Part shown: positions 1,911 through 16,845 of the stretch, piece by piece | Layout of the letters: the number at the start of each line of letters is the position of its first letter | How positions within the stretch are numbered: the stretch's first letter is position 1 | Virus record (IMG/VR): IMGVR_UViG_2585427778_000001 | Source: a virus | Taxonomy: Duplodnaviria > Heunggongvirae > Uroviricota > Caudoviricetes | DNA: 16,845 nucleotides | Reading direction: 5' to 3' (one strand) | The notes under the pieces: model-generated | Told to the model about the DNA's origin: nothing | Databases searched by the model: none | The model's input: the letters and a program-made list of their open reading frames with translations, nothing else | Position numbers and translations under genes: made by a program

Positions 1911-2153
1911 TCAACCCGCCTCCTTCTGAACATAACGGTTATAAATCAGTCCCTGAGGGCCATAAGGAAGCGGGATGTGCAACTCCTCTGGTTCAGAAAC
2001 TATCCATTCCCCGGCCATCTCCGCTGGAGAGGTAATGATAAGTTGTTTGCTAATAAAAGGACCACTCCTCTCAACAACAAGCTTACCATCTTCATTAATA
2101 AAAGCTTGGGTGTCAGGTGTGCTTCCACACTTGGTGATGCAGCGTTTGAACAT
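1911..2153 (-). CDS. Hypothetical protein (80 aa from the MFKR start; the ORF extends to 2195)
   Basis: Minus-strand ORF co-oriented with the pL operon; ATG at 2153 is preceded by a G-rich Shine-Dalgarno-like run (GGGGGG). No recognisable family. Confidence 0.5.
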   Translation of the reverse strand: MFKRCITKCGSTPDTQAFINEDGKLVVERSGPFISKQLIITSPAEMAGEWIVSEPEELHIPLPYGPQGLIYNRYVQKEAG

Positions 2154-2183
2154 TTTGTGTCCCCCCATTTTATGGACGGGGTA

Positions 2184-2192
2184 ATTATAACA
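2184..2192 (-). promoter_or_regulatory. Candidate extended -10 promoter (TGtTATAAT on the minus strand) for the 80-aa gene
   Basis: Perfect TATAAT with upstream TG in an AT-rich spacer about 30 nt upstream of the ATG at 2153; no good -35. Confidence 0.3.
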
Positions 2193-2279
2193 CATTGAAA
2201 TATAGTAATATTTGACGTAGATTTCTTTTGATCTATAAGCGATTTTTTAATGCTTTTAAGTTATAAATACTTGTTTTCA

Positions 2280-2855
2280 TCACCCATCTTGCTGCGGTGC
2301 TACTATTGAAAAGTACTCACACCCTTTAGCCCAAATAGTTTTGATAGTTGTCCAACTGACTGGAACCTTGATTTCGATTCTTCCGCTGCCGTCACAAGTT
2401 TCGCAATCATCATCACCAAAGCATTCCGGGCAGCTTATAAACGTAGTTTCTGAAAATTCACCGGATAGCACACCCTTAGCGCCGTTCTCAGCGGTTAGTT
2501 TCTTCGGCACTATAACCCAACCATCCGGAGTTACCGGAGAGTTGCCATTTATATCGAAGTTTGGCTCTGCGTCCTGAACCAGGAGGATGTAACCATTCTT
2601 GGCAGTATCAAGTTCTAACGCCTCGGTGACGGTACCGAAATAGCGATTACCTAAATCCGCATCACAAGTGCTTACATCAATGGAAACCTCCATGCCTTCG
2701 ATTAATTCTGGCAAGTTGTAAGTTTGGCTTACAGGTTCTGCTCCCAGTGATGCCAGTGCAATTCGTGCCAGTTCCATTTGTTCGCCACGAGTAAGCCCGT
2801 TTTCAAGCGGATTTTTAATGAACAATTCAATACGTTCTTTGGTAATAGTGGTCAT
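2280..2855 (-). CDS. Hypothetical protein, 191 aa, with C-terminal zinc-ribbon-like motif CPEC-x6-CETC
   Basis: Intact ORF with ATG start and AAGGA Shine-Dalgarno-like sequence; lies 10 bp downstream of the Tgt-like gene on the same strand. Cys pairs at CPECFGDDDCETCDGSG. Confidence 0.6.
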   Translation of the reverse strand: MTTITKERIELFIKNPLENGLTRGEQMELARIALASLGAEPVSQTYNLPELIEGMEVSIDVSTCDADLGNRYFGTVTEALELDTAKNGYILLVQDAEPNFDINGNSPVTPDGWVIVPKKLTAENGAKGVLSGEFSETTFISCPECFGDDDCETCDGSGRIEIKVPVSWTTIKTIWAKGCEYFSIVAPQQDG

Positions 2856-2865
2856 TTGTTAGTCC

Positions 2866-3621
2866 TTAAACTGCTAGTTGCAATTGCATTTCAAAGCGGT
2901 CGCGTTGTTCACAATACGCAAGAGAACCAGGGCTATTGTGTGCCTCAATCCGTTCTACCATTAATGCTGCGCGTGTCTCTTTACTTGCAGGTGCATAAGC
3001 CCCAGACCAGGCTTTATCAATACCGATGTTTCGAGCGACGTTCGTACTATCTGCGCTGGCTAAGGGTAATTTTGTGAATATCAGCGGATTTAACATGCGC
3101 AATCCATGTAGTTTCGTAACCGGCTGACCATGCCCATCAACAATGTGACGAATCAGGTCTTTCATTCTGGCTACCGCAAGAGTTGGGCGCTTTACGTCAT
3201 AGTCGCCACAACTACCGATAGCCACTCGCGGAAACTCATTGCACAAATGAATAAATCGCTCGTCACTTTCATTCATGTGCCACACTGGAACGCCAGCTAG
3301 TTTTCCGTGAGGCCACTCATTCAGAAGCGCATCATTTTCCTCCTCTCCGCCATCAATAACATCCGGGATAATGGCAAAATCGAATCCTGGGTGATTCTTC
3401 CAGCGAGCAACAAACTCGTAGTAATCGCTCCAGTCGATTTTGTTTTTGCCAGCTGCTTTCCAGGCGGTGAATGCACCGTTGTCCAGCGCGAACGACTGAC
3501 AGTATTCAGCCGCGAGATTGATCTGGCCTGAATGCGCAAAACTGATAAACGCATGTCGCCCTTTCCATGCTCTCATTGCGCACGTATCAGGAGTAATAGG
3601 CCCACCGTGGTAGTGAATCAT
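2866..3621 (-). CDS. Putative Tgt/DpdA-family transglycosylase-like protein (about 251 aa from MIHYHGG; the ORF extends to 3663)
   Basis: Strong AAGGAG Shine-Dalgarno sequence before the ATG at 3621. Ordered motif resemblance to the Tgt catalytic core, from memory of E. coli Tgt: LDNGAF vs TDSGGFQ; DFAIIPDV vs DIVMIFDEC; VAIGSCG vs YAVGGLAVG; HGLRMLNP vs YLMGVGKP; ADSTNVARNIG vs FDCVMPTRNARNG. No C-terminal CxCxxC...H zinc subdomain. Confidence 0.5.
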   Translation of the reverse strand: MIHYHGGPITPDTCAMRAWKGRHAFISFAHSGQINLAAEYCQSFALDNGAFTAWKAAGKNKIDWSDYYEFVARWKNHPGFDFAIIPDVIDGGEEENDALLNEWPHGKLAGVPVWHMNESDERFIHLCNEFPRVAIGSCGDYDVKRPTLAVARMKDLIRHIVDGHGQPVTKLHGLRMLNPLIFTKLPLASADSTNVARNIGIDKAWSGAYAPASKETRAALMVERIEAHNSPGSLAYCEQRDRFEMQLQLAV

Positions 3622-3622
3622 C

Positions 3623-4030
3623 TCACTCTCCTTTGATGCGAATGCCAGTAGCGCGGATTGCATCGATGACTTCAGAAACTTTGTATGCCATTACCGTTTG
3701 GTAATCATCGTGAAAATCTGTTCGATGAAGCATGCTGCTACGTTCCGGGAGCAGTATTTCCCGCGCTTCCAGTTCTGCAATGCGCTTTTTTGCTGCTTCC
3801 AGTTCATCCAGTAATTCCAGCACGGTAGCCGGATTAGCCTTGGCAACAAAATCCCGGACTGGCTTACAATCAATCTCCGCAATGGGTTGATACGATGTGT
3901 AGCCATGCTGTCTTGTATAACTACCGTGACGAATAACGAAAAAATCACCATTTATTTTTTTAGCCTGCCACTTATCTTCACCGGCTTTCTCTGCCGCTTC
4001 ACGCAGTGCCTGAGAGTTAATTTCGCTCAC
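3623..4030 (-). CDS. Ead/Ea22-like family protein (135 aa)
   Basis: N-terminal QALREAAEKA and coiled-coil LELLDELEAAKKRIAELEA segments typical of prophage Ea22-like proteins as recalled; GTG start overlaps the upstream stop (GTGA), and its stop lies 1 nt from the downstream ATG. Confidence 0.55.
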   Translation of the reverse strand: MSEINSQALREAAEKAGEDKWQAKKINGDFFVIRHGSYTRQHGYTSYQPIAEIDCKPVRDFVAKANPATVLELLDELEAAKKRIAELEAREILLPERSSMLHRTDFHDDYQTVMAYKVSEVIDAIRATGIRIKGE

Positions 4031-4248
4031 TTCGAACCTCTCTGTTTACTGATAAGTTCCAGATCCTCCTGGCAACTTGCACAAGTCCGACAACCCTGAA
4101 CGGCCAAGCGTCTTCGTTCATCTATCGGATCGCCACACTCACAACAATGAGTGGCAGATATAGCCTGGTGGTTCAGGCGGCGCATTTTTATTGCTGTGTT
4201 GCGCTGTAATTCTTCAATTTCTGATGCTGAATCAATGATGTCTGCCAT
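4027..4248 (-). CDS. TraR/DksA-family C4-type zinc finger protein (73 aa)
   Basis: Small protein with CxxC-x17-CxxC (CCECGDP...CRTCASC) and a size typical of phage TraR homologs; ATG start. Confidence 0.7.
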   Translation of the reverse strand: MADIIDSASEIEELQRNTAIKMRRLNHQAISATHCCECGDPIDERRRLAVQGCRTCASCQEDLELISKQRGSK

Positions 4249-4297
4249 CTTTCATTAATCCCTGAATTGTTGGTTAATACGCTTGAGGGTGAATGCG

Positions 4298-4324
4298 AAT
4301 AATAAAAAAGGAGCCTGTAGCTCC
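4298..4324 (-). terminator. Intrinsic terminator on the minus strand between orf61 and the accessory cassette
   Basis: Hairpin GGAGC-tacag-GCTCC followed on the minus strand by TTTTTTATTATT. Confidence 0.6.
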
Positions 4325-4346
4325 CTGATGATTTTGCTTTTCATGT

Positions 4347-4562
4347 TCACCGTTCCTTAAAAACGCCGTTTAACATGCCGATTGCCAGGCTTAAATGAGT
4401 CGGTGTGAATCCCATCAGCGTTACCGTTTCGCGGTGCTTCTTCAGTACGCTACGGCAAATGTCATCGACGTTTTTATCCGGAAACTGCTGTCTGGCTTTT
4501 TTGATTTCAGAATTAGCCTGACGGGCAATACTGCGAAGGGCGTTTTCCTGCTGAGGTGTCAT
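4347..4562 (-). CDS. Lambda orf61-like protein (start uncertain; the ORF extends to 4628)
   Basis: Translation MTPQQENALRSIARQANSEIKKARQQFPDK... matches lambda orf61 as recalled and sits in the lambda position. Confidence 0.7.
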   Translation of the reverse strand: MTPQQENALRSIARQANSEIKKARQQFPDKNVDDICRSVLKKHRETVTLMGFTPTHLSLAIGMLNGVFKER

Positions 4563-4638
4563 TGAACAAGTCCCATGTCGGCAAGCATAAGCACACAGAA
4601 TATGAAGCCCGCTGCCAGAAAAATGCATTCAGTGGTTG

Positions 4639-4830
4639 TCATACCTGGTCTCTCTCATCTGCTTCTGCTTTCGCCACCATCATTTCCAGCTTTTGTGAAA
4701 GGGATGTGGCTAACGTATGAAATTCTTCGTCTGTTTCTACTGGTATTGGCACAAACCTGACTCCAATTTGAGCAAGGCTATGTGCCATCTCAATACTCGT
4801 TCTTAACTCAACAGGAGATGCTTTGTGCAT
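4639..4830 (-). CDS. Lambda orf63-like protein (63 aa)
   Basis: Position and size match lambda orf63; collinear with the lambda coordinate offset used for exo. Confidence 0.75.
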   Translation of the reverse strand: MHKASPVELRTSIEMAHSLAQIGVRFVPIPVETDEEFHTLATSLSQKLEMMVAKAEADERDQV

Positions 4831-4985
4831 ACCGTCTCCCGTTTATTATTTATCTTCTCAGCCAGCCGCTGTGCTTTCAGTGGATTTCTGATAACAGAAA
4901 GGCCGGGAAATACCCAGCCTCGCTTTGTAACGGAGTAGACGAAAGTGATCGCGCCTACCCGGATATTATCGTGAGGATGCGTCAT
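4803..4985 (-). CDS. Lambda orf60a-like protein (60 aa)
   Basis: Translation [43 protein letters not shown]... matches lambda orf60a; immediately upstream of exo. Confidence 0.75.
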
Positions 4986-5662
4986 CGCCATTGCTCCCCA
5001 AATACAAAACCAATTTCAGCCAGTGCCTCGTCCATTTTTTCGATGAACTCCGGCACCATCTCGTCAAAACTCGCCATGTACTTTTCATTCCGCTCAATCA
5101 CGACATAATGCAGGCCTTCACGCTTCATGCGCGGGTCATAGTTGGCAAAGTACCAGGCATCTTTTCGAGTCACCCACATGCTGTACTGCACCTGGGCCAT
5201 GTAAGCCGATTTTATTGCCTCGAAACCACCGAGCCGGAATTTCATGAAATCCCGGGAGGTAAACGGGCATTTCAGCTCAAGGCCATTGCCGTCACTGCAT
5301 AAACCATCGGGAGAGCAGGCGGTGCGCATACCTTCGTCGCGATAGATGATCGGGGATTCAGTAACATTTACGCCGGAAGTGAACTCAAACAGGGTTCTGG
5401 CGTCGTTCTCGTACTGTTTTCCCCAGGCCAGCGCTTTAGCGTTAACTTCCGGAGCCACACCGGTGCAAACCTCAGCCAGCAGGGTGTGGAAGTAGGACAT
5501 TTTCATGTCAGGCCACTTTTTTCCGGAGCGGGGTTTTGCTATCACATTGTGAACTTCTGAAGCGGTGATGACGCCGAGCCGTAATTTGTGCCACGCATCA
5601 TCCCCCTGTTCGACAGCTCTCACGTCGATTCCGGTACGCTGCAGGATAATGTCCGGTGTCAT
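4982..5662 (-). CDS. exo: Lambda exonuclease (Red alpha), 226 aa
   Basis: Translation matches lambda Exo ([31 protein letters not shown]...); overlaps the bet stop. Confidence 0.97.
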
Positions 5663-6444
5663 GCAGCCACCTTCTGCTCAGAGGCTTTCTGTTTCAGGAA
5701 TCCAAGAACTTTCACTGCTTCGGCCTGTGCCAGTTCTGACGATGCGCGAATGTCGCGGCGAAATATCTGGGAACAGAGCGGCAATAAGTCGTCATCCCAT
5801 GTTTTATCCAGGGCGATCAGCAGAGTGTTAATCTCCTGCATGGTTTCATCGTTAACCGGAGTGATGTCGCGTTCCGGCTGACGTTCTGCAGTGTATGCAG
5901 TATTTTCGACAATGCGCTCGGCTTCATCCTTGTCATAGATACCAGCAAATCCGAAGGCCAGACGGGCACACTGAATCATGGCTTTATGCCGTAACATCCG
6001 TTTGGGATGCGACTGCCACGGTCCGGTGATTTCTCTGCCTTCGCGGGTTTTGAATGGTTCGCGGCGGCATTCATCCATCCACTCGGTAACGCAGATCGGA
6101 TGATTGCGGTCTTTGCGGTAAATCCGGCATGTGCAGGATTCGTTGTCCTGTTCAAAGTCCATGCCGTCAAACTGCTGGTTTTCGTTGATGATGCGGGACC
6201 AGCCATCAACGCCCACCACCGGAACGATGCCGTTCTGCTTATCAGGGAAGGCGTAAATTTCTTTCGTCCACGGATTAAGACCGTACTGGTTGGCGACGAT
6301 CAGCAATGCGATGAACTGCGCATCGCTGGCATCACCTTTAAATGCCGTCTGGCGAAGAGTGGTGATCAGTTCCTGTGGGTCGACAGAATCCATGCCGACT
6401 CGTTCAGCCAGCTTCCCAGCCAGCGTTGCGAGTGCTGTACTCAT
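5659..6444 (-). CDS. bet: Red beta single-strand annealing protein, 261 aa
   Basis: Translation matches lambda Bet ([44 protein letters not shown]...). Confidence 0.97.
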
Positions 6445-6449
6445 CCGTT

Positions 6450-6866
6450 TTATACCTCTGAATCAATATCAACCTGGTGGTGAGCAATGGTTTCAACCAT
6501 GTACCGGATGTGTTCTGCCATGCGCTCCTGAAACTCAACATCGTCATCAAACGCACGGGTAATGGCTTTTTTGCTGGCCCCGTGGCGTTGCAAATGATCG
6601 ATGCATAGCGATTCAAACAGGTGCTGGGGCAGGCCTTTTTCCATGTCGTCTGCCAGTTCTGCCTCTTTCTCTTCACGGGCGATCTGCTGGTAGTGACGCG
6701 CCCAGCTCTGAGCCTCAAGACGATCCTGAATGTAATAAGCGTTCATGGCTGAACTCCTGAAATAGCTGTGAAAATATCGCCCGCGAAATGCCAGGCTGAT
6801 TAGGAAAACAGGAAAGGGGGTTAGTGAATGCTTTTGCTTGATCTCAGTTTCAGCATTAATATCCAT
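6450..6866 (-). CDS. gam: Gam, RecBCD inhibitor, 138 aa
   Basis: Translation matches lambda Gam ([24 protein letters not shown]...). Confidence 0.97.
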
Positions 6867-6964
6867 TTTTTATAAGCGTCGACGGCTTCACGAAACATCT
6901 TTTCATCGCCAATAAAAGTGGCGATAGTGAATTTAGTCTGGATAGCCATACGTGTTTGATCCAT
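6821..6964 (-). CDS. kil: Kil, host-killing / FtsZ inhibitor (47-aa form; the ORF extends upstream to 7090)
   Basis: C-terminal 47 aa [47 protein letters not shown] match lambda Kil; overlaps the gam start by 46 nt as in lambda. Confidence 0.85.
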
Positions 6965-7097
6965 TCTTTGGGACTCCTGGCTGATTAAGTATGTCGATAA
7001 GGCGTTTCCATCCGTCACGTAATTTACGGGTGATTCGTTCAAGTAAAGATTCGGAAGGGCAGCCAGCAACAGGCCACCCTGCAATGGCATATTGCAT
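6933..7097 (-). CDS. cIII: CIII, protects CII from FtsH, 54 aa
   Basis: Hand translation of the minus strand gives [54 protein letters not shown], matching lambda CIII; below the ORF-track size cutoff. Confidence 0.9.
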   Translation of the reverse strand: MQYAIAGWPVAGCPSESLLERITRKLRDGWKRLIDILNQPGVPKNGSNTYGYPD

Positions 7098-7169
7098 GGT
7101 GTGCTCCTTATTTATACATAACGAAAAACGCCTCGAGTGAAGCGTAATTGGTATGCGGTAACGCCGCGC

Positions 7170-7538
7170 TCAGGCGGCTTTGACAGTCATATCATCTGGA
7201 TCAAATATTCCTGATGTATCGATATCGGTAATTCTTATTCCTTCGCTACCATCCATTGGAGGCCATCCTTCCTGACCACTTCCATCATTCCAGTCGAACT
7301 CACACACAACACCATATGCATTTAAGTCGCTTGAAATTGCTATAAGCAGAGCATGTTGCGCCAGCATGATTAATACAGCATTTAATACAGAGCCGTGTTT
7401 ATTGAGTCGGTATTCAGAGTCTGACCAGAAATTATTAATCTGGTGAAGTTTTTCCTCTGTCATTACGTCATGGTCGATTTCAATTTCTATTGATGCTTTC
7501 CAGTCGTAATCAATGATGTATTTTTTGATGTTTGACAT
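7170..7538 (-). CDS. ea10: Ea10, 122 aa
   Basis: Size and position match lambda ea10 with the same coordinate offset as exo through ral. Confidence 0.85.
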   Translation of the reverse strand: MSNIKKYIIDYDWKASIEIEIDHDVMTEEKLHQINNFWSDSEYRLNKHGSVLNAVLIMLAQHALLIAISSDLNAYGVVCEFDWNDGSGQEGWPPMDGSEGIRITDIDTSGIFDPDDMTVKAA

Positions 7539-7554
7539 CTATTCATATCCTCAT

Positions 7555-7584
7555 AGATAAAAAATCTCCCTCACACTGGAGGGC
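7555..7584 (-). terminator. Candidate intrinsic terminator on the minus strand between ral and ea10
   Basis: 5-bp GC stem CCCTC-cagtgt-GAGGG followed by AGATTTTTTATC on the minus strand; the stem is short. Confidence 0.4.
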
Positions 7585-7720
7585 AAAGAAGATTTCCAAT
7601 AATCAGAACAAGTCGGCTCCTGTTTAGTTACGAGCGACATTGCTCCGTGTATTCACTCGTTGGAATGAATACACAGTGCAGTGTTTATTCTGTTATTTAT
7701 GCCAAAAATAAAGGTCACTA

Positions 7721-7921
7721 TCAGGCAGCTTTGTTGTTCTGTTTACCAAGTTCTCTGGCAATCATTGCCGTCGTTCGTATTGCCCATTTATCGACATATT
7801 TCCCATCTTCCATTACAGGAAACATTTCTTCAGGCTTAACCATGTATTCCGATTGCAGCTTGCATCCATTGCATCGCTTGAATTGTCCACACCATTGATT
7901 TTTATCAATAGTCGTAGTCAT
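7721..7921 (-). CDS. ral: Ral, restriction alleviation protein, 66 aa
   Basis: Translation MTTTIDKNQWCGQFKRCNGCKLQSEYMVKPEEMFPVMEDGKYVDKWAIRTTAMIARELGKQNNKAA matches lambda Ral. Confidence 0.95.
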   Translation of the reverse strand: MTTTIDKNQWCGQFKRCNGCKLQSEYMVKPEEMFPVMEDGKYVDKWAIRTTAMIARELGKQNNKAA

Positions 7922-7991
7922 ACGGATAGTCCTGGTATTGTTCCATCACATCCTGAGGATGCTCTTCGAACTCTTCAAATTCTTCTTCCAT
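7905..7991 (-). CDS. Lambda orf28-like acidic peptide, 28 aa
   Basis: Hand translation MEEEFEEFEEHPQDVMEQYQDYPYDYDY; overlaps the ral start in the lambda arrangement. Confidence 0.6.
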   Translation of the reverse strand: MEEEFEEFEEHPQDVMEQYQDYPYDYDY

Positions 7992-8118
7992 ATATCACCT
8001 TAAATAGTGGATAGCGGTAGTAAAGATTGTGCCTGTCTTTTAACCACATCAGGCTCGGTGGTTCTCGTGTACCCCTACAGCGAGAAATCGGATAAACTAT
8101 TACAACCCCTACAGTTTG

Positions 8119-8670
8119 ATGAGTATAGAAATGGATCCACTCGTTATTCTCGGACGAGTGTTCAGTAATGAACCTCTGGAGAGAACCATGTATATGATCG
8201 TTATCTGGGTTGGACTTCTGCTTTTAAGCCCAGATAACTGGCCTGAATATGTTAATGAGAGAATCGGTATTCCTCATGTGTGGCATGTTTTCGTCTTTGC
8301 TCTTGCATTTTCGCTAGCAATTAATGTGCATCGATTATCAGCTATTGCCAGCGCCAGATATAAGCGATTTAAGCTAAGAAAACGCATTAAGATGCAAAAC
8401 GATAAAGTGCGATCAGTAATTCAAAACCTTACAGAAGAGCAATCTATGGTTTTGTGCGCAGCCCTTAATGAAGGCAGGAAGTATGTGGTTACATCAAAAC
8501 AATTCCCATACATTAGTGAGTTGATTGAGCTTGGTGTGTTGAACAAAACTTTTTCCCGATGGAACGGGAAGCATATATTATTCCCTATTGAGGATATTTA
8601 CTGGACTGAATTAGTTGCCAGCTATGATCCATATAATATTGAGATAAAGCCAAGGCCAATATCTAAGTAA
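8119..8670 (+). CDS. sieB: Superinfection exclusion protein SieB (the ORF begins at a TTG at 8116; first ATG at 8119)
   Basis: Plus-strand gene between ral and N and convergent with N, as in lambda; hydrophobic N-terminal region (IVIWVGLLLL, FVFALAFSLAI). Confidence 0.85.
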   Translation: MSIEMDPLVILGRVFSNEPLERTMYMIVIWVGLLLLSPDNWPEYVNERIGIPHVWHVFVFALAFSLAINVHRLSAIASARYKRFKLRKRIKMQNDKVRSVIQNLTEEQSMVLCAALNEGRKYVVTSKQFPYISELIELGVLNKTFSRWNGKHILFPIEDIYWTELVASYDPYNIEIKPRPISK

Positions 8671-8994
8671 CTAAGTAAGAGGAATCGATTTTCCCTTAAT
8701 TTTCTGGCGTCCACTGCATGTTATGCCGCGTTCGCCAGGCTTGCTGTACCATGTGCGCTGATTCTTGCGCTCAATACGTTGCAGGTTGCTTTCAATCTGT
8801 TTGTGGTATTCAGCCAGCACTGTAAGGTCTATCGGATTTAGTGCGCTTTCTACTCGTGATTTCGGTTTGCGATTCAGCGAGAGAATAGGGCGGTTAACTG
8901 GTTTTGCGCTTACCCCAACCAACAGGGGATTTGCTGCTTTCCATTGAGCCTGTTTCTCTGCGCGACGTTCGCGGCGGCGTGTTTGTGCATCCAT
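8671..8994 (-). CDS. N: N transcription antiterminator, 107 aa (the ORF extends upstream to 9126)
   Basis: MDAQTRRRERRAEKQAQWKAANPLLVGVSAKPVNRPILSLNRKPKSRVESALNPIDLTVLAEYHKQIESNLQRIERKNQRTWYSKPGERGITCSGRQKIKGKSIPLT matches lambda N with the arginine-rich motif. Confidence 0.95.
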   Translation of the reverse strand: MDAQTRRRERRAEKQAQWKAANPLLVGVSAKPVNRPILSLNRKPKSRVESALNPIDLTVLAEYHKQIESNLQRIERKNQRTWYSKPGERGITCSGRQKIKGKSIPLT

Positions 8995-9151
8995 CTGGAT
9001 TCTCCTGTCAGTTAGCTTTGGTTGTGTGTGGGAGTCGTAGTCCTGAACGAAAACACCCAGCAATGGCACATTGACAGCTAATCCGGATTCGCACTTCCGG
9101 CCAATGCTTCGTTTCGTATCACACACACCAAAGCCTTCTGCTTTGAATGCT

Positions 9152-9182
9152 GCCCTTCTTCAGGGCTTAATTTTTAAGAGCA
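9152..9182 (-). promoter_or_regulatory. nutL (boxA TGCTCTTAAAAATTAA and boxB hairpin GCCCTGAAGAAGGGC, read on the minus strand)
   Basis: Near-exact match to lambda nutL boxA/boxB, upstream of N. Confidence 0.85.
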
Positions 9183-9222
9183 TCACCTTCATGGTGGTCA
9201 GTGCGTCCTGCTGATGGCCTAA

Positions 9223-9307
9223 AATATACCTACAGGTAAAACAGTTGTCTATACCTGCAGGTAAATAAAATTGATGTAAGAGTTTACCTGCTTGAATTTT
9301 CAGGTAA
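9223..9307 (-). promoter_or_regulatory. pL/oL region of a non-lambda immunity type
   Basis: Candidate pL TAGACA-17bp-TATATT on the minus strand (plus 9246-9251 and 9223-9228), overlapped by palindromic operator-like sites TATACCTACAGGTAAA (9225-9240), TATACCTGCAGGTAAA (9250-9265) and TTACCTG-N10-CAGGTAA (9284-9307). Confidence 0.6.
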
Positions 9308-9323
9308 TTAATTTTTTGGATTG

Positions 9324-9349
9324 ATATAAAAAAGCCCGCTTTGCGGGCT
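9324..9349 (-). terminator. Intrinsic terminator on the minus strand ending the repressor operon
   Basis: Hairpin AGCCCGC-aaa-GCGGGCT followed by TTTTTATATCAA on the minus strand, immediately downstream of the 104-aa gene. Confidence 0.75.
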
Positions 9350-9360
9350 GAAAGGAGATG

Positions 9361-9675
9361 TCAGAAGCTATTTGGATTGCTTGGCCATTGCGGCAATTTT
9401 GATTCTACTGGGGTGTGTTTGGGTTTGAGTCCGTTTAAGTAGTCAAGACGCTCAATGGCGCATTTATACATAGCAATCTGCTCTGATGACATGTCGTCGT
9501 ATGACATGCCTTTGAACTTTTTAATTATCGATTCTGCCTCATGTATAAGATGCTTCTTCTTCATGAGTTCAGCTGTATGCTTAGAGCTTACAGGAGATAA
9601 CTTTGCCCATATGAAGCAGATGATTACAACAGCGACTACTATGCCGGGTATAAACACTTGCTGCTTTATCCTCAA
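9361..9675 (-). CDS. Small membrane-anchored protein (98-104 aa) co-transcribed downstream of cI
   Basis: The ORF begins at a TTG overlapping the cI stop (TTGA); a likelier start is GTG at 9657 with a GAGGA Shine-Dalgarno sequence. One N-terminal hydrophobic helix (FIPGIVVAVVIICFIWA) then a charged helical region. No family recognised. Confidence 0.6.
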   Translation of the reverse strand: MRIKQQVFIPGIVVAVVIICFIWAKLSPVSSKHTAELMKKKHLIHEAESIIKKFKGMSYDDMSSEQIAMYKCAIERLDYLNGLKPKHTPVESKLPQWPSNPNSF

Positions 9676-10358
9676 ACTTTTGGCAGATCGTCCTGGTCTA
9701 CGTACCTGGTGTGTTTCACAATAGCTGAAACAAAATGCATTTTATCAACTTCTTCAACAGGAAGAGTGATTGGGCGGTGATCACTGTTTATGCTACTAAA
9801 CTGATAATCACCGTCTCTTGTTTTGTTCATGATCTTTATCATGTTGTGACCGTCTTTGGTCCTTACAAAGACTTCATCACCTGGATGTACTGGCGTATTT
9901 GGTTCAATAACAACATATTCTCCTGACTGAATCCTTGGCCACATGCTGTCACCCTTAACCTTCAGACCGTAAGCATCGTTATCGCCGCTGTAGATGCTTA
10001 ACCAACCGGATCTGAATTCAATCATATCCACTGAGCCATCAACTCCCAAAACGGCTTCACCAATTACCGGAACAAAACCCGCACGAACGTTACCCGCAAA
10101 CTCAAGATGGTCTGTAGCTCCAGCTTTACCATCTGCAAGCATGTCCATCCATCCGCGTGGGAGATTAAAAGATTTTTCAATTAGTTCCATCATATCGTCA
10201 GCAATGCGTTTTTTTCCGCTTTTTCCTTCCGGATACAGCATTCTGGAAACGTATGATGGTTCCCTTTCTATTCGACGAGCCAACTCTGAGGCCTTTCCAT
10301 TACAGAATCGGTCTCTTATCTCTATCAGCCTTAGTCGTCTTTGTTCGTATTTATCCAT
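9672..10358 (-). CDS. cI: CI-type prophage repressor (HTH plus LexA-like S24 autopeptidase domain), 228 aa, not lambda cI
   Basis: N-terminal HTH (ASELARRIEREPSYVSRML), a candidate Ala-Gly cleavage site (EFAGNV) and C-terminal GDSMWP...K serine/lysine dyad motifs; divergent from cro across an operator region. Confidence 0.85.
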   Translation of the reverse strand: MDKYEQRRLRLIEIRDRFCNGKASELARRIEREPSYVSRMLYPEGKSGKKRIADDMMELIEKSFNLPRGWMDMLADGKAGATDHLEFAGNVRAGFVPVIGEAVLGVDGSVDMIEFRSGWLSIYSGDNDAYGLKVKGDSMWPRIQSGEYVVIEPNTPVHPGDEVFVRTKDGHNMIKIMNKTRDGDYQFSSINSDHRPITLPVEEVDKMHFVSAIVKHTRYVDQDDLPKV

Positions 10359-10377
10359 GATTTAATTCTATCTTTGA

Positions 10378-10434
10378 TTACCTGCCGGTAAATAACCTAT
10401 GGGTATTGATTTGCTTTTTACCTACAGGTAAACT
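10378..10434. promoter_or_regulatory. oR/pR/pRM region with three operator-like sites
   Basis: TTACCTGCCGGTAAA (10378-10392), TAACCTATGGGTATT (about 10394-10408) and TTACCTACAGGTAA (10418-10431); candidate pR TTGATT (10406-10411) -17bp- TAAACT (10429-10434) upstream of cro. Confidence 0.6.
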
Positions 10435-10466
10435 CATCTTATTCAACAACGGGAAGGAGATAGCAA

Positions 10467-10697
10467 ATGGAAGAACTCCGCTTGTATCTGAACTCCCTTT
10501 CACTGGAAGAGCAGAGAGAATTTGCCACCAAGTGCGGAACTTCTATCGGCTATTTGAGGAAAGCACTTAGCCGTAATCATGAATTGGGCGCAGCACTTTG
10601 TGTTCTGATTGAGAAGTTCAGCAATGGTGAAGTGACTCGCAAAGACCTTCATCCGGTTGATTGGGAAAGCATCTGGCCTGAATTAATGGCCGCTTAA
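10467..10697 (+). CDS. cro: Cro-like HTH regulator, 76 aa
   Basis: First rightward gene after oR, strong GGAAGGAGA Shine-Dalgarno sequence, HTH-like segment ATKCGTSIGYLRKAL. Confidence 0.7.
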   Translation: MEELRLYLNSLSLEEQREFATKCGTSIGYLRKALSRNHELGAALCVLIEKFSNGEVTRKDLHPVDWESIWPELMAA

Positions 10698-10705
10698 GTT
10701 ATTAA

Positions 10706-10737
10706 CGCTCTTACACATCCCCGCCCTGAAAAAGGGC
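10706..10737 (+). promoter_or_regulatory. nutR (boxA CGCTCTTA, boxB GCCCTGAAAAAGGGC)
   Basis: Match to lambda nutR between cro and cII. Confidence 0.85.
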
Positions 10738-10763
10738 ATTACCAGAAACAAATCTCTATGGTT

Positions 10764-10777
10764 TTGCGTTTCTTTGC
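10764..10777 (-). promoter_or_regulatory. CII-binding repeat TTGC-N6-TTGC (pRE-like) upstream of cII
   Basis: TTGCgtttctTTGC in the cro-cII intergenic region, analogous to lambda pRE. Confidence 0.5.
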
Positions 10778-10813
10778 GAAGCCAACTCTATCTAATCATT
10801 AAGGAAATTATCT

Positions 10814-11095
10814 ATGAGTACTATTGCAACTAAAAGCAAGAAAGCGGCTCGCATCGAGTCAGCCTTGCTGAACAAACTGGCACTGATGGGGCAGAAGACA
10901 TTCGCTCGAGCAATGGGGGTTCCTGAATATCAGGTAAGCCGATGGAAGAATGGTTTCTTCTCGCAGGTAAGCATGATGCTGGCTGTTCTGGAATACGGAA
11001 TCGAAGACGATGAAATGGCTGAGCTGACTAAGCGGCTTGCCAATTACCTGACAAAAGAAAAAGCCCCGAAGAACGGCGAATTCTTCGAGGCCTGA
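10814..11095 (+). CDS. cII: CII-like transcriptional activator, 93 aa
   Basis: Similarity to lambda CII (RIESALLNKLA...SRWK...MLAVLEYG...DDEMAEL) and lambda position before O. Confidence 0.85.
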   Translation: MSTIATKSKKAARIESALLNKLALMGQKTFARAMGVPEYQVSRWKNGFFSQVSMMLAVLEYGIEDDEMAELTKRLANYLTKEKAPKNGEFFEA

Positions 11096-11129
11096 TGTAG
11101 AAAGACTGGATCAATCCACAGGAGTCATT

Positions 11130-12029
11130 ATGACAAATACAGCAAAAATACTCAACTTCGGCAGAGGTAACTTTGCCGGACAGGAGCGTAATGTGGCAGA
11201 TCTCGATGATGGTTACGCCAGACTATCAAATATGCTGCTTGAGGCTTATTCGGGCGCAGATCTGACCAAGCGACAGTTTAAAGTGCTGCTTGCCATTCTG
11301 CGTAAAACCTATGGGTGGAATAAACCAATGGACAGAATCACCGATTCTCAACTTAGCGAGATTACAAAGTTACCTGTCAAACGGTGCAATGAAGCCAAGT
11401 TAGAACTCGTCAGAATGAATATTATCAAGCAGCAAGGCGGCATGTTTGGACCAAACAAAAACATCTCAGAATGGTGCATCCCTCAAAACGAGGGAAAATC
11501 CCCTAAAACGAGGGATAAAACATCCCTCAAATTGGGGGATTGCTATCCCTCAAAACAGGGGGACACAAAAGACACTATTACAAAAGAAAAAAGAAAAGAT
11601 TATTCGTCCGAGAATTCTGGCGAATCCTCTGACCAGCCAGAAAACGATCTTTCTGTGGTTAAACCGGATGCTGCAATTCAGAGCGGCAGTAAGTGGGGAA
11701 CAGCAGAAGACCTGACCGCCGCAGAGTGGATGTTTGACATGGTGAAGACCATCGCGCCATCAGCCAGAAAACCGAATTTTGCTGGGTGGGCTAACGATAT
11801 CCGCCTGATGCGTGAACGTGACGGACGTAACCACCGCGATATGTGTGTGCTTTTCCGCTGGGCCTGCCAGGACAACTTCTGGTCCGGTAACGTGCTGAGT
11901 CCGGCCAAACTCCGCGACAAGTGGACCCAGCTCGAAATCAACCGTAACAAGCAACAGGCTGGCGTGACAGCCGGAAAACCAAAACTCGACCTGACAAACA
12001 CTGACTGGATTTACGGGGTGGATCTATGA
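11130..12029 (+). CDS. O: Replication initiator O, 299 aa
   Basis: Translation matches lambda O; contains the ori iterons internally. Confidence 0.97.
   Translation: MTNTAKILNFGRGNFAGQERNVADLDDGYARLSNMLLEAYSGADLTKRQFKVLLAILRKTYGWNKPMDRITDSQLSEITKLPVKRCNEAKLELVRMNIIKQQGGMFGPNKNISEWCIPQNEGKSPKTRDKTSLKLGDCYPSKQGDTKDTITKEKRKDYSSENSGESSDQPENDLSVVKPDAAIQSGSKWGTAEDLTAAEWMFDMVKTIAPSARKPNFAGWANDIRLMRERDGRNHRDMCVLFRWACQDNFWSGNVLSPAKLRDKWTQLEINRNKQQAGVTAGKPKLDLTNTDWIYGVDL
11478..11610. repeat. ori-lambda: four about 18-bp iterons (TCCCTCAAAACGAGGGA-like) followed by an A/T-rich unwinding region, inside O
   Basis: Four direct repeats with internal dyad symmetry at about 11478-11563, then an A-rich stretch 11564-11610. 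Confidence 0.9.
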
Positions 12030-12727
12030 AAAACATCGCCGCACAGATGGTTAACTTTGACCGTGAGCAGATGCGTCGGATCGCCAACAACATGCCGGAA
12101 CAGTACGACAAAAAGCCACAGGTACAGCAGGTAGCGCAGATCATCAACGGTGTGTTCAGCCAGTTACTGGCAACTTTCCCGGCGAGTCTGGCTAACCGTG
12201 ACCAGAACGAACTGAACGAAATCCGCCGCCAGTGGGTTCTGGCTTTCCGGGAAAACGGGATCACCACAATGGAACAGGTTAACGCAGGAATGCGCGTAGC
12301 CCGTCGGCAGAATCGACCATTTCTGCCATCACCCGGGCAGTTTGTTGCATGGTGCCGGGAAGAAGCATCCGTTATCGCCGGACTGCCAAACGTCAGCGAG
12401 CTGGTTGATATGGTTTACGAGTATTGCCGGAAGCGAGGCCTGTATCCGGATGCGGAGTCTTATCCGTGGAAATCAAACGCGCACTACTGGCTGGTTACCA
12501 ACCTGTATCAGAACATGCGGGCCAATGCGCTTACTGATGCGGAATTACGGCGCAAGGCTGCCGATGAACTGACCTGTATGACAGCGCGAATTAACCGTGG
12601 TGAGACGATACCTGAACCAGTAAAACAACTTCCTGTTATGGGCGGTAGACCTCTAAATCGTGCACAGGCTCTGGCGAAGATCGCAGAAATTAAAGCTAAG
12701 TTCGGACTGAAAGGAGCAAGTGTATGA
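12026..12727 (+). CDS. P: Replication protein P (DnaB helicase loader), 233 aa
   Basis: Translation matches lambda P; start overlaps the O stop. Confidence 0.95.
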   Translation: MKNIAAQMVNFDREQMRRIANNMPEQYDKKPQVQQVAQIINGVFSQLLATFPASLANRDQNELNEIRRQWVLAFRENGITTMEQVNAGMRVARRQNRPFLPSPGQFVAWCREEASVIAGLPNVSELVDMVYEYCRKRGLYPDAESYPWKSNAHYWLVTNLYQNMRANALTDAELRRKAADELTCMTARINRGETIPEPVKQLPVMGGRPLNRAQALAKIAEIKAKFGLKGASV

Positions 12728-13014
12728 CGGGCAAAGAGGCAATTATTCATTACCTGGGGACGCATAATAGCTTCTGTGCGCCGGACGTTGCCGCGCTAAC
12801 AGGCGCAACAGTAACCAGCATAAATCAGGCCGCGGCTAAAATGGCACGGGCAGGTCTTCTGGTTATCGAAGGTAAGGTCTGGCGAACGGTGTATTACCGG
12901 TTTGCTACCAGGGAAGAACGGGAAGGAAAGATGAGCACGAACCTGATTTTTAAGGAGTGTCGCCAGAGTGCCGCGATGAAACGGGTATTGGCGGTATATG
13001 GAGTTAAAAGATGA
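12724..13014 (+). CDS. ren: Ren, 96 aa
   Basis: Size, position and overlap with the P stop as in lambda. Confidence 0.85.
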   Translation: MTGKEAIIHYLGTHNSFCAPDVAALTGATVTSINQAAAKMARAGLLVIEGKVWRTVYYRFATREEREGKMSTNLIFKECRQSAAMKRVLAVYGVKR

Positions 13015-13039
13015 CCATCTACATTACTGAGCTAATAAC

Positions 13040-13070
13040 AGGCCTGCTGGTAATCGCAGGCCTTTTTATT
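13040..13070 (+). terminator. tR2-like intrinsic terminator between ren and ninB
   Basis: 8-bp stem AGGCCTGC-tggtaatc-GCAGGCCT followed by TTTTTATTT. Confidence 0.8.
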
Positions 13071-13087
13071 TGGGGGAGAGGGAAGTC

Positions 13088-13528
13088 ATGAAAAAACTAA
13101 CCTTTGAAATTCGATCTCCAGCACATCAGCAAAACGCTATTCACGCAGTACAGCAAATCCTTCCAGACCCAACCAAACCAATCGTAGTAACCATTCAGGA
13201 ACGCAACCGCAGCTTAGACCAAAACAGGAAGCTATGGGCCTGCTTAGGTGACGTCTCTCGTCAGGTTGAATGGCACGGTCGCTGGCTGGATGCAGAAAGC
13301 TGGAAGTGTGTGTTTACCGCAGCATTAAAGCAGCAGGATGTTGTTCCTAACCTTGCCGGGAATGGCTTTGTGGTAATAGGCCAGTCAACCAGCAGGATGC
13401 GTGTAGGCGAATTTGCGGAGCTATTAGAGCTTATACAGGCATTCGGTACAGAGCGTGGCGTTAAGTGGTCAGACGAAGCGAGACTGGCTCTGGAGTGGAA
13501 AGCGAGATGGGGAGATCGGGCTGCATGA
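13088..13528 (+). CDS. ninB: NinB (Orf family recombination mediator), 146 aa
   Basis: Matches lambda NinB starting MKKLTFEIRSPAHQQNAIHAVQQILPDPTKPIVV... Confidence 0.9.
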   Translation: MKKLTFEIRSPAHQQNAIHAVQQILPDPTKPIVVTIQERNRSLDQNRKLWACLGDVSRQVEWHGRWLDAESWKCVFTAALKQQDVVPNLAGNGFVVIGQSTSRMRVGEFAELLELIQAFGTERGVKWSDEARLALEWKARWGDRAA

Positions 13529-14052
13529 CTATCAAATCAAATACGCCAGCACACGACAAGGACTGCTGGCAAACGCCGCTTTGGCTTTTTGATGCACTGG
13601 ATATTGAGTTTGGATTCTGGCTGGATTCGGCAGCGAGCGACAAAAATGCTCTGTGTGCTCACTGGCTAACTGAGGCCGACGACGCGCTCAATTCTGAGTG
13701 GGTAAGCCACGGTGCAATCTGGAATAACCCACCGTACAGCAATATCAGGCCGTGGGTGGAAAAAGCTGCTGAGCAGTGCATACAACAGCGACAGACGGTA
13801 GTTATGCTTGTGCCAGAGGATATGTCAGTCGGATGGTTCAGCAAGGCTCTGGAGAGTGTCGACGAAGTTCGCATTATCACTGATGGACGGATTAATTTTA
13901 TCGAACCATCGACAGGGCTGGAGAAGAAGGGAAACAGCAAAGGCTCCATGCTGCTGATTTGGCGACCGTTCATCAGTCCTCGACGGATGTTTACTACCGT
14001 ATCCAAAGCGGCATTGATGGCGATCGGGCAGGGCGTCAGGAGGGCGGCATGA
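13525..14052 (+). CDS. Phage orphan DNA N6-adenine methyltransferase (Dam-like), about 175 aa, in the position of lambda ninC
   Basis: NPPY catalytic motif (WNNPPYS) and the DKDCWQTP N-terminal motif typical of phage N6-adenine methyltransferases; ATG overlaps the ninB stop (ATGA). Confidence 0.8.
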
Positions 14053-14225
14053 GGCGACAGCGACGAAGTTTCACCGACATCATCTGCGAAAACTGCAAAT
14101 ACCTTCCAACGAAACGCTCCAGAAATAAACGCAAGCCAATCCCAAAAGAATCTGACGTAAAAACCTTCAATTACACAGCTCACCTGTGGGATATCCGGTG
14201 GCTAAGATATCGTGCGAGGAAATGA
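14049..14225 (+). CDS. ninE: NinE, 58 aa
   Basis: [58 protein letters not shown] resembles NinE; start overlaps the methyltransferase stop. Confidence 0.8.
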
Positions 14226-14569
14226 CAATGGATTATTCACAGTTAAGTGATTTTGAAATTAACAGAATGGTAGGAGACATAATTTTTAAAGGCCTTTGGG
14301 CAAGTAAACCGGAAACATCAGGGAATAACACCAACAAATGGTATTACGGAAATGCTGATACAACTTTTGAGCCATTAAATCATTTGCCTGACTACTGCAA
14401 TGATCCGAGCGCTTCATGGCCGATTATTGAGAAATACAGGATTTCTATCTTAGACCAGTTAACTGAATGGTGTGTGGATGCAAAAGGCGTAAGCCCAATA
14501 TTTGATACCAGACCTCTCCGCGCCGCCATGATTGTCTTTCTCCTGATGCAGGAGGCCAATAATGCTTAG
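14222..14569 (+). CDS. Hypothetical nin-region protein, about 115 aa
   Basis: ORF with ATG overlapping the ninE stop (ATGA); compositionally protein-like. Family not recognised with certainty. Confidence 0.5.
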
Positions 14570-14650
14570 CCCATCTCAATCCCTTCAATACCTGAAAGGA
14601 AGCATAGAGCGGGCTTCAATGTGCACAGAGTGGATTCTATCTAGGTTTAG

Positions 14651-14779
14651 CGCATACAGAAGATTGCCGGTAAAGGGCATGCCAAGCAAGTCGATGCTGC
14701 ATATGCAAAAGAATGCGCGCTGGAAGGTATGGCGAGAACACAGGTTATCTGGCTGAAAGAGGGGGTTATTAAGGCGTGA
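14651..14779 (+). pseudogene. Possible 3' remnant of a ybcO-like (DUF1364) gene with no start codon
   Basis: The frame ending in a GTGA overlap with the rusA start translates as ...[42 protein letters not shown] but is closed by stop codons at 14642 and 14648 with no upstream ATG. Resemblance to the YbcO C-terminus is from memory only. Confidence 0.3.
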
Positions 14780-15138
14780 ATACCTACAGCATCACATTAC
14801 CCTGGCCTCCGAGCAATAATCGCTATTACCGCCATAATCGCGGGCGCACGCACGTCAGCGCAGAGGGGCAGGCATACCGCGATAACGTCGCCCGAATCAT
14901 TAAAAACGCAATGCTGGATATCGGCCTGACTATGCCTGTGAAAATCCGCATTGAGTGCCACATGCCGGATCGCCGTCGCCGTGACCTGGATAATCTGCAA
15001 AAAGCCGCTTTTGACGCACTCACTAAAGCAGGTTTCTGGCTGGATGATGCTCAGGTCGTTGATTACCGCGTTGTGAAGATGCCTGTTACCAAAGGTGGGA
15101 GGCTGGAACTGACCATCACCGAAATGGGGAATGAATGA
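14776..15138 (+). CDS. rusA: RusA Holliday junction resolvase, 120 aa (GTG start)
   Basis: Translation [51 protein letters not shown]...[12 protein letters not shown] matches E. coli DLP12 RusA as recalled. Confidence 0.95.
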
Positions 15139-15275
15139 TGTTTGAGTTTAATATGGCAGAACTTCTTCGCCACCGCTGGGGGCGTCTGCGCTTATATCGT
15201 TTCCCCGGTTCTGTTTTGACCGATTACCGAATACTGAAGAATTACGCCAAAACACTGACAGGAGCAGGAGTATGA
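15135..15275 (+). CDS. ylcG: YlcG-like small protein, 46 aa
   Basis: Hand translation [46 protein letters not shown]; ATG overlaps the rusA stop; same gene order as DLP12 (rusA-ylcG-quuD). Confidence 0.6.
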
Positions 15276-15360
15276 AGTCAGAGATAACAATCAACTAATA
15301 CTGTTTTGTTGATTTTTGCTTGTAATTGGCGTTCTGGTCTGAGTTTTGTGGAGTAAGTTG

Positions 15361-15738
15361 ATGCGTGATATTCAGATGGTTCTTGAGCGTTGGGGAGCGT
15401 GGGCGGCTAATAATCATGAAGATGTGACCTGGTCGTCCATTGCCGCCGGTTTTAAGGGATTAATTCCTTCAAAAGTAAAATCTCGCCCACAATGTTGTGA
15501 CGATGACGCGATGATCATTTGCGGGTGCATGGCCCGTCTGAAAAAGAACAACAGCGATTTGCATGATTTATTGGTGGACTATTATGTCGGCGGCATGACT
15601 TTTATGGCGCTTGCACGTAAGCATGGGCGATCTGATTGTTGGGTTGGCAGGATGCTTCAGAAAGCTGAGGGCGTAGTGGAGGGGATGCTGATGGTGTTGG
15701 ATCTCCGATTGGAGATGGATGCTGATTGTTCGAAATAA
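15361..15738 (+). CDS. Q: Q82/QuuD-type late antiterminator (about 125 aa from ATG 15361; the ORF begins at a TTG at 15346)
   Basis: [76 protein letters not shown]... resembles the DLP12 QuuD / phage 82 Q family, not lambda Q. Confidence 0.85.
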
Positions 15739-15744
15739 TTAAAG

Positions 15745-15790
15745 GAAAAGTTGCTGTCTGATTGTCATTAGTCTAACATTTTAAATGTTG
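15745..15790 (+). promoter_or_regulatory. Candidate late promoter pR' downstream of Q
   Basis: Candidate TTGCTG (15751-15756) -17bp- TAACAT (15774-15779), placed by analogy; it would give a short leader ending at the downstream terminator. Confidence 0.35.
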
Positions 15791-15837
15791 GAATCGCAAC
15801 GTAGTTATTATCATATAACAGCTTGTTTCCTGATTTA

Positions 15838-15866
15838 GCCAGCCTCCCCAAAGGCTGGTCTTTTTC
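15838..15866 (+). terminator. tR'-like intrinsic terminator of the short late leader transcript
   Basis: Stem GCCAGCCT-ccccaa-AGGCTGGT followed by CTTTTT. Confidence 0.75.
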
Positions 15867-15893
15867 TAATAAGTATTATTTCGGGTAGGGATT

Positions 15894-16082
15894 TTATTGT
15901 TTAACCCATAATAATTCATTGACATTGAATCCCAACTTTTGAGCGGTTCGCACATAGTCTGCTTTTACTTTATCTGGAATAGTTGGGGTCCTTGCCAGAA
16001 TCCATAGGTATTCTCTGTTCGGACCACTGACAAGAGCATACTTATACTCATCATCCAGTTTGATTACATTATAGCCACCATA
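15894..16082 (-). pseudogene. 3' fragment of a lipocalin (Blc-like) gene, interrupted by IS1
   Basis: Hand translation of the minus strand from the IS1 junction: YGGYNVIKLDDEYKYALVSGPNREYLWILARTPTIPDKVKADYVRTAQKLGFNVNELLWVKQ-stop, carrying the bacterial lipocalin YLWILxRTP motif. The reading frame runs directly into the IS1 left end. Confidence 0.65.
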
Positions 16083-16137
16083 GGTGATGCTGCCAACTTA
16101 CTGATTTAGTGTATGATGGTGTTTTTGAGGTGCTCCA

Positions 16138-16413
16138 GTGGCTTCTGTTTCTATCAGCTGTCCCTCCTGTTCAGCTACTGACGGGGTGGTGCGTAACGGC
16201 AAAAGCACCGCCGGACATCAGCGCTATCTCTGCTCTCACTGCCGTAAAACATGGCAACTGCAGTTCACTTACACCGCTTCTCAACCCGGTACGCACCAGA
16301 AAATCATTGATATGGCCATGAATGGCGTTGGATGCCGGGCAACTGCCCGCATTATGGGCGTTGGCCTCAACACGATTTTACGTCACTTAAAAAACTCAGG
16401 CCGCAGTCGGTAA
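16138..16413 (+). CDS. insA: IS1 InsA, 91 aa (GTG start)
   Basis: Translation [43 protein letters not shown]... matches IS1 InsA; the A6C frameshift motif TTAAAAAACTC (about 16389-16395) lies near its 3' end. Confidence 0.95.
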
Positions 16414-16835
16414 CCTCGCGCATACAGCCGGGCAGTGACGTCATCGTCTGCGCGGAAATGGACGAACAGTGGGGCTATGTCGGGGCTAAATCGCGCCAGC
16501 GCTGGCTGTTTTACGCGTATGACAGGATACGGAGGACGGTTGTTGCGCACGTATTCGGTGAACGCACGCTGGCCACGCTGGAGCGTCTTCTGGGCCTGCT
16601 GTCGGCCTTTGAGGTCGTGGTATGGATGACAGATGGCTGGCCGCTTTATGAATCACGCCTGAAGGGAGAACTGCACGTTATCAGCAAGCGATATACGCAG
16701 CGCATTGAGCGGCATAACCTGAATCTGAGGCAGCATCTGGCAAGGCTGGGCAGGAAGTCACTGTCGTTCTCAAAATCGGTGGAGCTGCATGACAAAGTCA
16801 TCGGGCATTATCTGAACATAAAACACTATCAATAA
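16332..16835 (+). CDS. insB: IS1 InsB frame (167-aa ORF; expressed as the InsAB' transposase by -1 frameshift)
   Basis: Translation matches IS1 InsB (…[21 protein letters not shown]…[49 protein letters not shown]). Confidence 0.9.
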
Positions 16836-16845
16836 GTTGGAGTCA

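Follow-up and report, generated by a model that had tools for sequence, protein, structure and literature searches.

Probable IS1 insertion into a phage-borne blc-type lipocalin gene downstream of the late antiterminator gene of a predicted lambda-like prophage

The 16,845-nt stretch of viral DNA analysed in this study (hereafter, the window) ends with the 3' remnant of a blc-type lipocalin gene abutting an IS1 element, and the best explanation for this arrangement appears to be an ordinary transposition of IS1 into codon 112/113 of the gene, with a predicted right flank of the kind left by a simple insertion. We give this reading a probability of about 0.65, limited by the predicted right flank: the window stops within IS1, and none of the collections searched has this junction. 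The identity of the two elements themselves, a blc-type lipocalin and IS1, is near certain. According to the proposed mechanism, IS1 would have entered the gene in the same orientation as late transcription and split it in two, and the DNA beyond the window would comprise the last 5 nt of IS1, a second copy of the nine bases GCCACCATA, the 5' two-thirds of the gene, the ybgA-like and AraC-like genes and the lysis genes. Under a simple insertion, the right junction would read CATTACC followed directly by GCCACCATAGAAGGGGCC.

The event is in itself ordinary, since it involves a well-known insertion sequence in a well-known and widely annotated phage moron, in a slot known for its cargo, and is of an already documented kind, near-identical events having been annotated by PGAP in closed genomes. 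Its implications are mainly for annotation: the 62-codon remnant is best entered as a fragmentary pseudogene derived from the phage blc moron, and where the contig stops, a break caused by a repeat should be assumed and not the end of a prophage. Besides, it adds one more case of IS elements eroding accessory genes in the slot between Q and the lysis genes of E. coli lambdoid prophages, and the sole point of experimental appeal is a candidate fusion promoter that faces the late control region. The coordinates of the features discussed below are collected in Table 1.

Table 1. Features in the terminal part of the window (positions are those of the window)
Feature	Position	Strand	Details
Late antiterminator Q gene (125 aa; Q82/QuuD-type family)	15361..15738	+	PF06530 Phage_antitermQ, E=2.5e-51
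Putative late promoter pR' (TTGCTG, 17 nt, TAACAT)	15751..15779	+	Inferred, read from the sequence
Intrinsic terminator, tR'-like	15838..15868	+	8-bp GC-rich stem (15838-15859), 6-nt loop, CTTTTTCT tail
blc-type lipocalin moron, 3' remnant (pseudogene fragment)	15894..16082	-	Codons 113-174 of 174 plus stop
Candidate fusion promoter TTGGCA-17-TATAAT	16068..16096	-	11 of 12 consensus positions; directed toward tR', pR' and Q
Predicted target-site duplication (9 bp), left copy, GCCACCATA	16074..16082		Last 9 bases before the IS1 left repeat
IS1	16083..16845	+	763 of 768 bp; last 5 nt of the right repeat outside the window
IS1 left inverted repeat	16083-16105	+	Exact; GGTGATGCTGCCAACTTACTGAT
insA (91 aa)	16138..16413	+	PF03811 Zn_ribbon_InsA, E=1.3e-21; PF12759 HTH_Tnp_IS1, E=4.7e-31
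insB' frame (DDE transposase domain), open to stop	16332..16835	+	PF03400 DDE_Tnp_IS1, E=5.9e-74, profile 1-131 of 131
IS1 programmed -1 frameshift motif TTAAAAAAC (A6C)	16387..16395	+	Read from the sequence; insB frame open across it

The lipocalin remnant and its intact homologue

The remnant is read on the minus strand as an uninterrupted frame of 62 codons and a stop (YGGYNVIKLDDEYKYALVSGPNREYLWILARTPTIPDKVKADYVRTAQKLGFNVNELLWVKQ), and its product matches the Pfam family Lipocalin_2 (PF08212) with E=1.3e-16 and a score of 61.3 bits (cut-off 24), over profile positions 86-146 of 146 only. The match is not due to chance, since all 189 nt of the remnant are 100% identical to positions 1-189 (the 3' end) of the intact gene of E. 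coli AR_0085 (locus L001). Because only residues 113-174 are present, the window copy represents a pseudogene fragment and not a functional member of the Blc family. It lacks the first two-thirds of the eight-stranded barrel (about six of the eight strands), the N-terminal region of the G-x-W motif (NRYLGKWYEIAR in the intact protein) and the signal peptide with its lipobox (MKLWPVLTGIALSFTLIAC in intact homologues).

When the frame of the remnant was followed upstream into IS1, an in-frame stop was met six codons inside the element and no ATG, GTG or TTG start codon was found that would give an ORF of at least 30 aa. Translation of the remnant from a start supplied by IS1 was rejected on these grounds, and for the same two reasons the remnant is considered a dead fragment. 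The moron is thus predicted to be inactivated, and a remnant devoid of promoter and start would be unable to form a lipocalin barrel or to get to the outer membrane. The insertion point (codon 113, window 16080-16082) lies three residues from the split site of an engineered split Blc (PDB 6ukl and 6vri), whose fragments cover residues 16-109 and 110-174 of our query. The remnant approximates the small half of this known complementing pair, a coincidence without evident biological meaning.

The intact homologue of AR_0085 is a 525-bp gene encoding 174 aa, with a signal peptide and the lipobox LIAC (...FTLIAC). With the NCBIfam Blc model NF007786 it reaches 316 bits, the cut-off being 267, and it aligns end-to-end with the E. 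coli Blc structure 3mbt (E=3.5e-69). Judged from these sequence comparisons, the intact gene is a genuine Blc paralogue carried by phages, Blc being an outer-membrane lipocalin. It was found in 1,134 of the 5,426 complete E. coli genomes, BL21(DE3) and HS among them, and about 8% of the carrier genomes had a broken copy (1,134 carriers against 1,041 with adequate coverage), a broken copy being scored when no place in the genome covered at least 80% of the gene. The partial members of the lipocalin protein cluster represent breaks at other positions.

In the relatives examined, the genomic context of the gene was constant and comprised Q, the lipocalin gene in antisense orientation, a YbgA-like gene, an AraC-like regulator, holin, lysozyme and Rz. 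The same module is carried by plaque-forming lambdoid phages, including IdasGreatGrand, Lambda_ev087, 1H12 and others, and a published survey already counts blc among the morons, with a prevalence of more than 50% in lambda phages of the infant gut (Mathieu et al., 2020; PMC6969025). The lipocalin gene would therein be the first gene of an accessory module placed after Q, on the strand opposite to the late operon, and in the lysogen it is presumably transcribed from a promoter of its own. A consensus scan of the intact locus detected no strong sigma-70 promoter upstream of the gene.

The IS1 element and the late control region

The visible part of IS1 is collinear with full-length copies up to the point at which it is cut by the end of the window. 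Of the terminal inverted repeats of about 23 bp, the left one is exact and the right one can be followed to the window end. The element carries insA and insB', both of them open frames, with the A6C -1 frameshift from which the InsAB' DDE transposase is produced, all three Pfam matches being far above their cut-offs, and the annotation of relatives places a 'programmed frameshift' at the same point. An IS1 copy of E. coli STK78-E matches the visible stretch with 100% identity, and among about 9,600 matching records no more than 178 had a copy at least 99% identical. By this count, the element is a minority IS1 variant, and PGAP labels it 'IS1 family', neither IS1A nor IS1B.

Upstream of the remnant, the Q gene occupies the position at which relatives are annotated with a 378-bp 'antiterminator Q family protein', and its product is a distant match to the Q21 structures 6p18 and 6jnx (E=1.9e-8). 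The putative pR' is too weak a match to pass the threshold of our consensus scan; in a comparison of six related phages and prophages, its -35 hexamer is invariant and its -10 hexamer keeps the pattern TAnnnT. The tR'-like hairpin is the only terminator-like site in the region 15300-16200 (fold z=-3.65 against shuffles), is conserved in viable phages and lies about 100 nt after the Q stop codon and about 25 nt before that of the lipocalin gene. This strong terminator is effectively one-directional because the minus strand has no U-tract, and a bidirectional terminator that would also serve the lipocalin gene was rejected as unsupported in view of the missing T-tract on that strand. The region therefore contains the components of a lambdoid late control unit, namely Q, a nearby intrinsic terminator and a promoter, the last being putative.

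The interval from pR' to the terminator (15751-15868, plus strand) is 96% conserved across the six relatives and would yield a putative short RNA of about 80 nt, made constitutively in lysogens. Analogues of such a transcript are the lambda 6S RNA and, in Stx phages, the regulatory sRNA StxS (PMC7547250). When 15000-16845 was compared with Rfam, just two sub-threshold chance matches resulted.

These results bear out in full what the first-pass annotation had read from the sequence in this part of the window, and its interpretation in part. Its assignment of Q and tR' agrees with the PF06530 match and with the terminator fold, and its identification of IS1 agrees with the InsA and InsB Pfam matches and the exact left repeat. 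Likewise, the 62 C-terminal lipocalin codons that it had described are recovered by translation and by the PF08212 match. They stand on the opposite strand just after the late terminator, as it had stated, and their frame runs, also as stated, into an IS1 left inverted repeat that begins at 16083.

The cargo slot downstream of Q

Phages 434, ev243 and mEp332 have a closely related Q, lose homology with our sequence at window position 15720 and have no lipocalin gene. An antisense nmpC-like porin gene replaces the lipocalin gene in two prophages (L020, 3344-4426; L021, 757-1839) that carry the repressor of the window together with a 127-aa Q variant, and the slot seems to swap outer-membrane-protein cargo. 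The gene hence behaves as dispensable cargo between conserved modules, its presence varying among related phages, as morons do. Its absence or replacement by a porin in relatives supports the earlier suggestion that the site between Q and the lysis genes is a moron cargo site, and by synteny with the relatives that carry the lipocalin module, IS1 would stand beyond the late promoter and ahead of the lysis genes, as had been suggested from the sequence.

Origin of the lipocalin-IS1 junction

Two near-identical prophages carry the lipocalin gene uninterrupted (L014, 99.92% identical over window positions 8663-16083; L013, 99.3% identical over 4015-16083), and their homology ends exactly at the IS1 boundary. 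The nine bases at the left flank, put forward in the first-pass annotation as one copy of a target-site duplication, were confirmed at 16074-16082. Among ten contexts that share the repressor of the window, none had IS1 in the lipocalin gene; eight carried an intact lipocalin gene or a porin gene instead, and two were without the module.

Insertions comparable to that of the window occur in several other genomes. In GN02270 (NZ_CP095510.1), an IS1 in the same orientation lies 3 bp away, is flanked by a 9-bp target-site duplication (ATAGCCACC) and has both halves of the gene beside it; since the IS1 variant differs, this insertion is regarded as an independent event. An IS1A is found in 027_SK3 17 bp away, in the opposite orientation and with an 8-bp duplication, while EEC_W5 carries IS1 at gene position 378 with a 9-bp duplication. 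In 23CRST004 and ANT, the lipocalin gene is split by IS3-family elements.

Three of five comparable IS1 cases are thus clean insertions with a target-site duplication, which argues against the main rival explanation, namely that an IS1-mediated rearrangement (adjacent deletion, inversion or recombination between IS1 copies) left a truncated and defective prophage. Under such a rearrangement the 5' part of the lipocalin gene, and possibly the whole late region, would no longer lie beside IS1. Also against it, the left boundary in the window falls precisely at the end of IS1, the lipocalin gene beside it being otherwise collinear, and no other damage was seen within the window. The remaining two of the five IS1-adjacent cases have no duplication and reflect a deletion or rearrangement mediated by IS1, and it is because of them that a rearranged right flank has to be considered realistic. 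In E1648, lipocalin position 114 is linked through IS1 directly to a LysR-type gene of no relation, the whole left arm of the prophage having been lost, and in MLI104K1 IS1 lies upstream of the lipocalin gene and the ybgA-like gene is missing. The same explanation is favoured by the IS-riddled state of many related prophages and by the multi-copy nature of the window's IS1 variant in its carrier genomes. Weighing these observations, we hold a rearrangement to be unlikely, though well worth considering, and ordinary transposition with a simple-insertion flank to be the better account.

The junction itself was not recovered elsewhere. Queried as an exact 36-mer, the left junction had 0 matches in each of three collections, namely IMG/VR, the representative genomes of GTDB and the metagenome contigs of JGI. 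When 200 bp around the junction were compared with the 5,426 complete E. coli genomes, only three records were at least 80% covered, none of them with the window junction, the nearest being that of GN02270 at an offset of 3 bp. We also built the fusion protein predicted at the right flank, which consists of lipocalin residues 1-115 and 26 IS1-derived residues. It had no full-coverage match in a search of 5.8 billion clusters and no exact match among about 15 billion proteins, and this route has little power because the GN02270 fusion, taken as a control, was likewise absent.

A junction unique among the databases searched, in a window that ends 5 nt before the end of IS1 as is typical of a contig broken in a repeat, could also point to an assembly artefact, in which lipocalin and IS1 sequences were mis-joined where a repeat had ended the contig, the real genome having an unbroken gene. 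Assemblers, however, break at repeats and rarely invent exact IS-end junctions. The join in the window falls on the precise first base of the left repeat, as in a real transposition, and within a 20-bp stretch that was independently struck by IS1 in two closed genomes, and we therefore regard a mis-join as extremely unlikely.

The independent insertions of the window, GN02270 and 027_SK3 all fall within 20 bp (gene positions 186-206; window 16079-16082 and beyond; L002 8097/8866; L009 2234/3003). They involve different IS1 variants and both orientations, and this stretch of blc may be a local IS1 hot spot.

The junction promoter and late transcription

At the junction, a -35 hexamer from the IS1 left repeat and a -10 hexamer from lipocalin codons together form a candidate fusion promoter that is absent from the uninterrupted gene. 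It is the sole match to at least 11 of the 12 sigma-70 consensus positions on either strand of the whole window, for which shuffled sequences give an expectation of 0.32. Fusion promoters of IS1 have been experimentally demonstrated in other settings, according to the listing of Prentki et al. (1986) in PMC9330008.

Such a promoter raises the possibility that the insertion was selected for it, in that antisense firing over tR', pR' and the 3' end of Q would dampen the late genes and stabilise, or domesticate, the prophage. In keeping with this idea, a match that is alone of its strength in 16.8 kb was created by the insertion itself, promoters of this type have experimental precedent, and a consensus scan found no minus-strand terminator between the candidate promoter and Q. 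On the other hand, the intact lipocalin gene already transcribes convergently in this region, and the net change may be nil; the GN02270 insertion would leave a 14-nt spacer, and no recurrent selection is seen; an untranslated transcript would be prone to Rho termination; and the allele was seen nowhere else. Selection for the promoter is accordingly judged very improbable. Because the intact gene already transcribes in that direction and GN02270 gives a 14-nt spacer, the junction promoter is better read as a by-product than as a selected function, and a real regulatory role for it is highly doubtful. Equally doubtful is the combined proposition that a promoter built by chance interferes in antisense with the late switch and helps to lock the prophage in, while the 20-bp stretch is a genuine IS1 hot spot.

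The possibility that IS1 is polar on late gene expression, raised in the first-pass annotation, is itself questionable, as late transcription in viable relatives already has to pass about 2.7 kb of foreign cargo on its way from pR' to the holin gene. Q-modified RNA polymerase has been described as a polarity suppressor that also suppresses pausing at a Rho-dependent terminator (Forbes and Herskowitz, 1982, and Yang and Roberts, 1989, both cited in PMC12360218). IS1 probably does not stop late transcription, because the Q-modified polymerase reads through terminators and polar insertions.

The prophage backbone

The window starts in the ybhC-int intergenic region, that is, at the lambda attachment site, and would correspond to a lambda-like prophage integrated there beside ybhC and carrying the common accessory module after Q. 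Within the window, int, exo, bet, sieB, N, the S24 repressor gene, cII, O, P, ren, ninB, dam, ninX, rusA, ylcG and Q are intact, and no further IS elements were detected, IS1 being the sole lesion seen. The earlier view that the insertion may mark a defective or decaying prophage is thus not borne out over the window, in which the early genes from int to Q are intact and no other IS is present.

The immunity region (9021-11104) and part of the b-like region (1617-4014) are mosaic. Overall, the window is closest to 23CRST009 (99.6%), yet the immunity modules of the two differ, and other genomes share the immunity region of the window and differ from it in 1617-4014. Directly downstream of the repressor gene, where lambda carries rexAB, lies a 104-aa ORF (9361-9675, minus strand) with no Pfam match, which in relatives is called as 67 or 98 aa or is not called, and which may be an uncharacterised gene expressed in the lysogen. 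In close relatives, the Rac-prophage genes trkG and ynaK come after the lysis cassette, and the structural genes that come next are interrupted by several copies of IS1203. This arrangement was seen in three loci (L001, 10413-12265; L007, 29581 onward; L008). Over its late half, this prophage lineage is mosaic and often degraded.

Comparison with known systems

The candidate promoter resembles the known IS1 fusion promoters (Prentki et al., 1986; activation of acrEF in Salmonella) in combining an outward -35 hexamer at the IS1 end with a -10 hexamer of the target at a 17-nt spacing. Unlike those promoters, it has no intact gene downstream to activate. With respect to the chromosomal Blc of E. 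coli (PDB 3mbt, 1qwd and 2aco), the intact phage homologue aligns throughout, passes the Blc cut-off and has a lipobox. The gene of the window differs from the chromosomal blc locus in being a phage-carried paralogue with a putative lysogen function, present here as a fragment.

The closest counterpart of the remnant is the blc gene of prophages and phages (WP_000780581.1, 'lipocalin family protein'), to the 3' end of which it is 100% identical. Like that gene, it is encoded antisense, 25 nt past the tR'-like terminator that follows Q, and its neighbours, as seen in relatives, correspond. This gene is annotated as 'Lipocalin Blc' in Lambda_ev087 and 1H12 and is unnamed in IdasGreatGrand. It is intact elsewhere, whereas the window copy is interrupted by IS1 and only codons 113-174 are in view. 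The nearest parallel for the insertion itself is GN02270, which shares the prophage type, the gene and the IS1 orientation of the window and displays the full anatomy of a simple insertion. It differs in the 3-bp offset of the target, in an IS1 variant that is about 96% identical to that of the window and in the presence of a second IS1, in ninX, in its prophage.

A broader parallel is offered by the cryptic prophage DLP12 of E. coli K-12, in which the nmpC porin gene is interrupted by IS5 downstream of quuD. Both DLP12 and the window have an antisense outer-membrane-protein moron that follows a Q82-type antiterminator gene and has been knocked out by an insertion sequence, and the two differ in the cargo, a porin in DLP12 and a lipocalin in the window, and in the element, IS5 in the former and IS1 in the latter.
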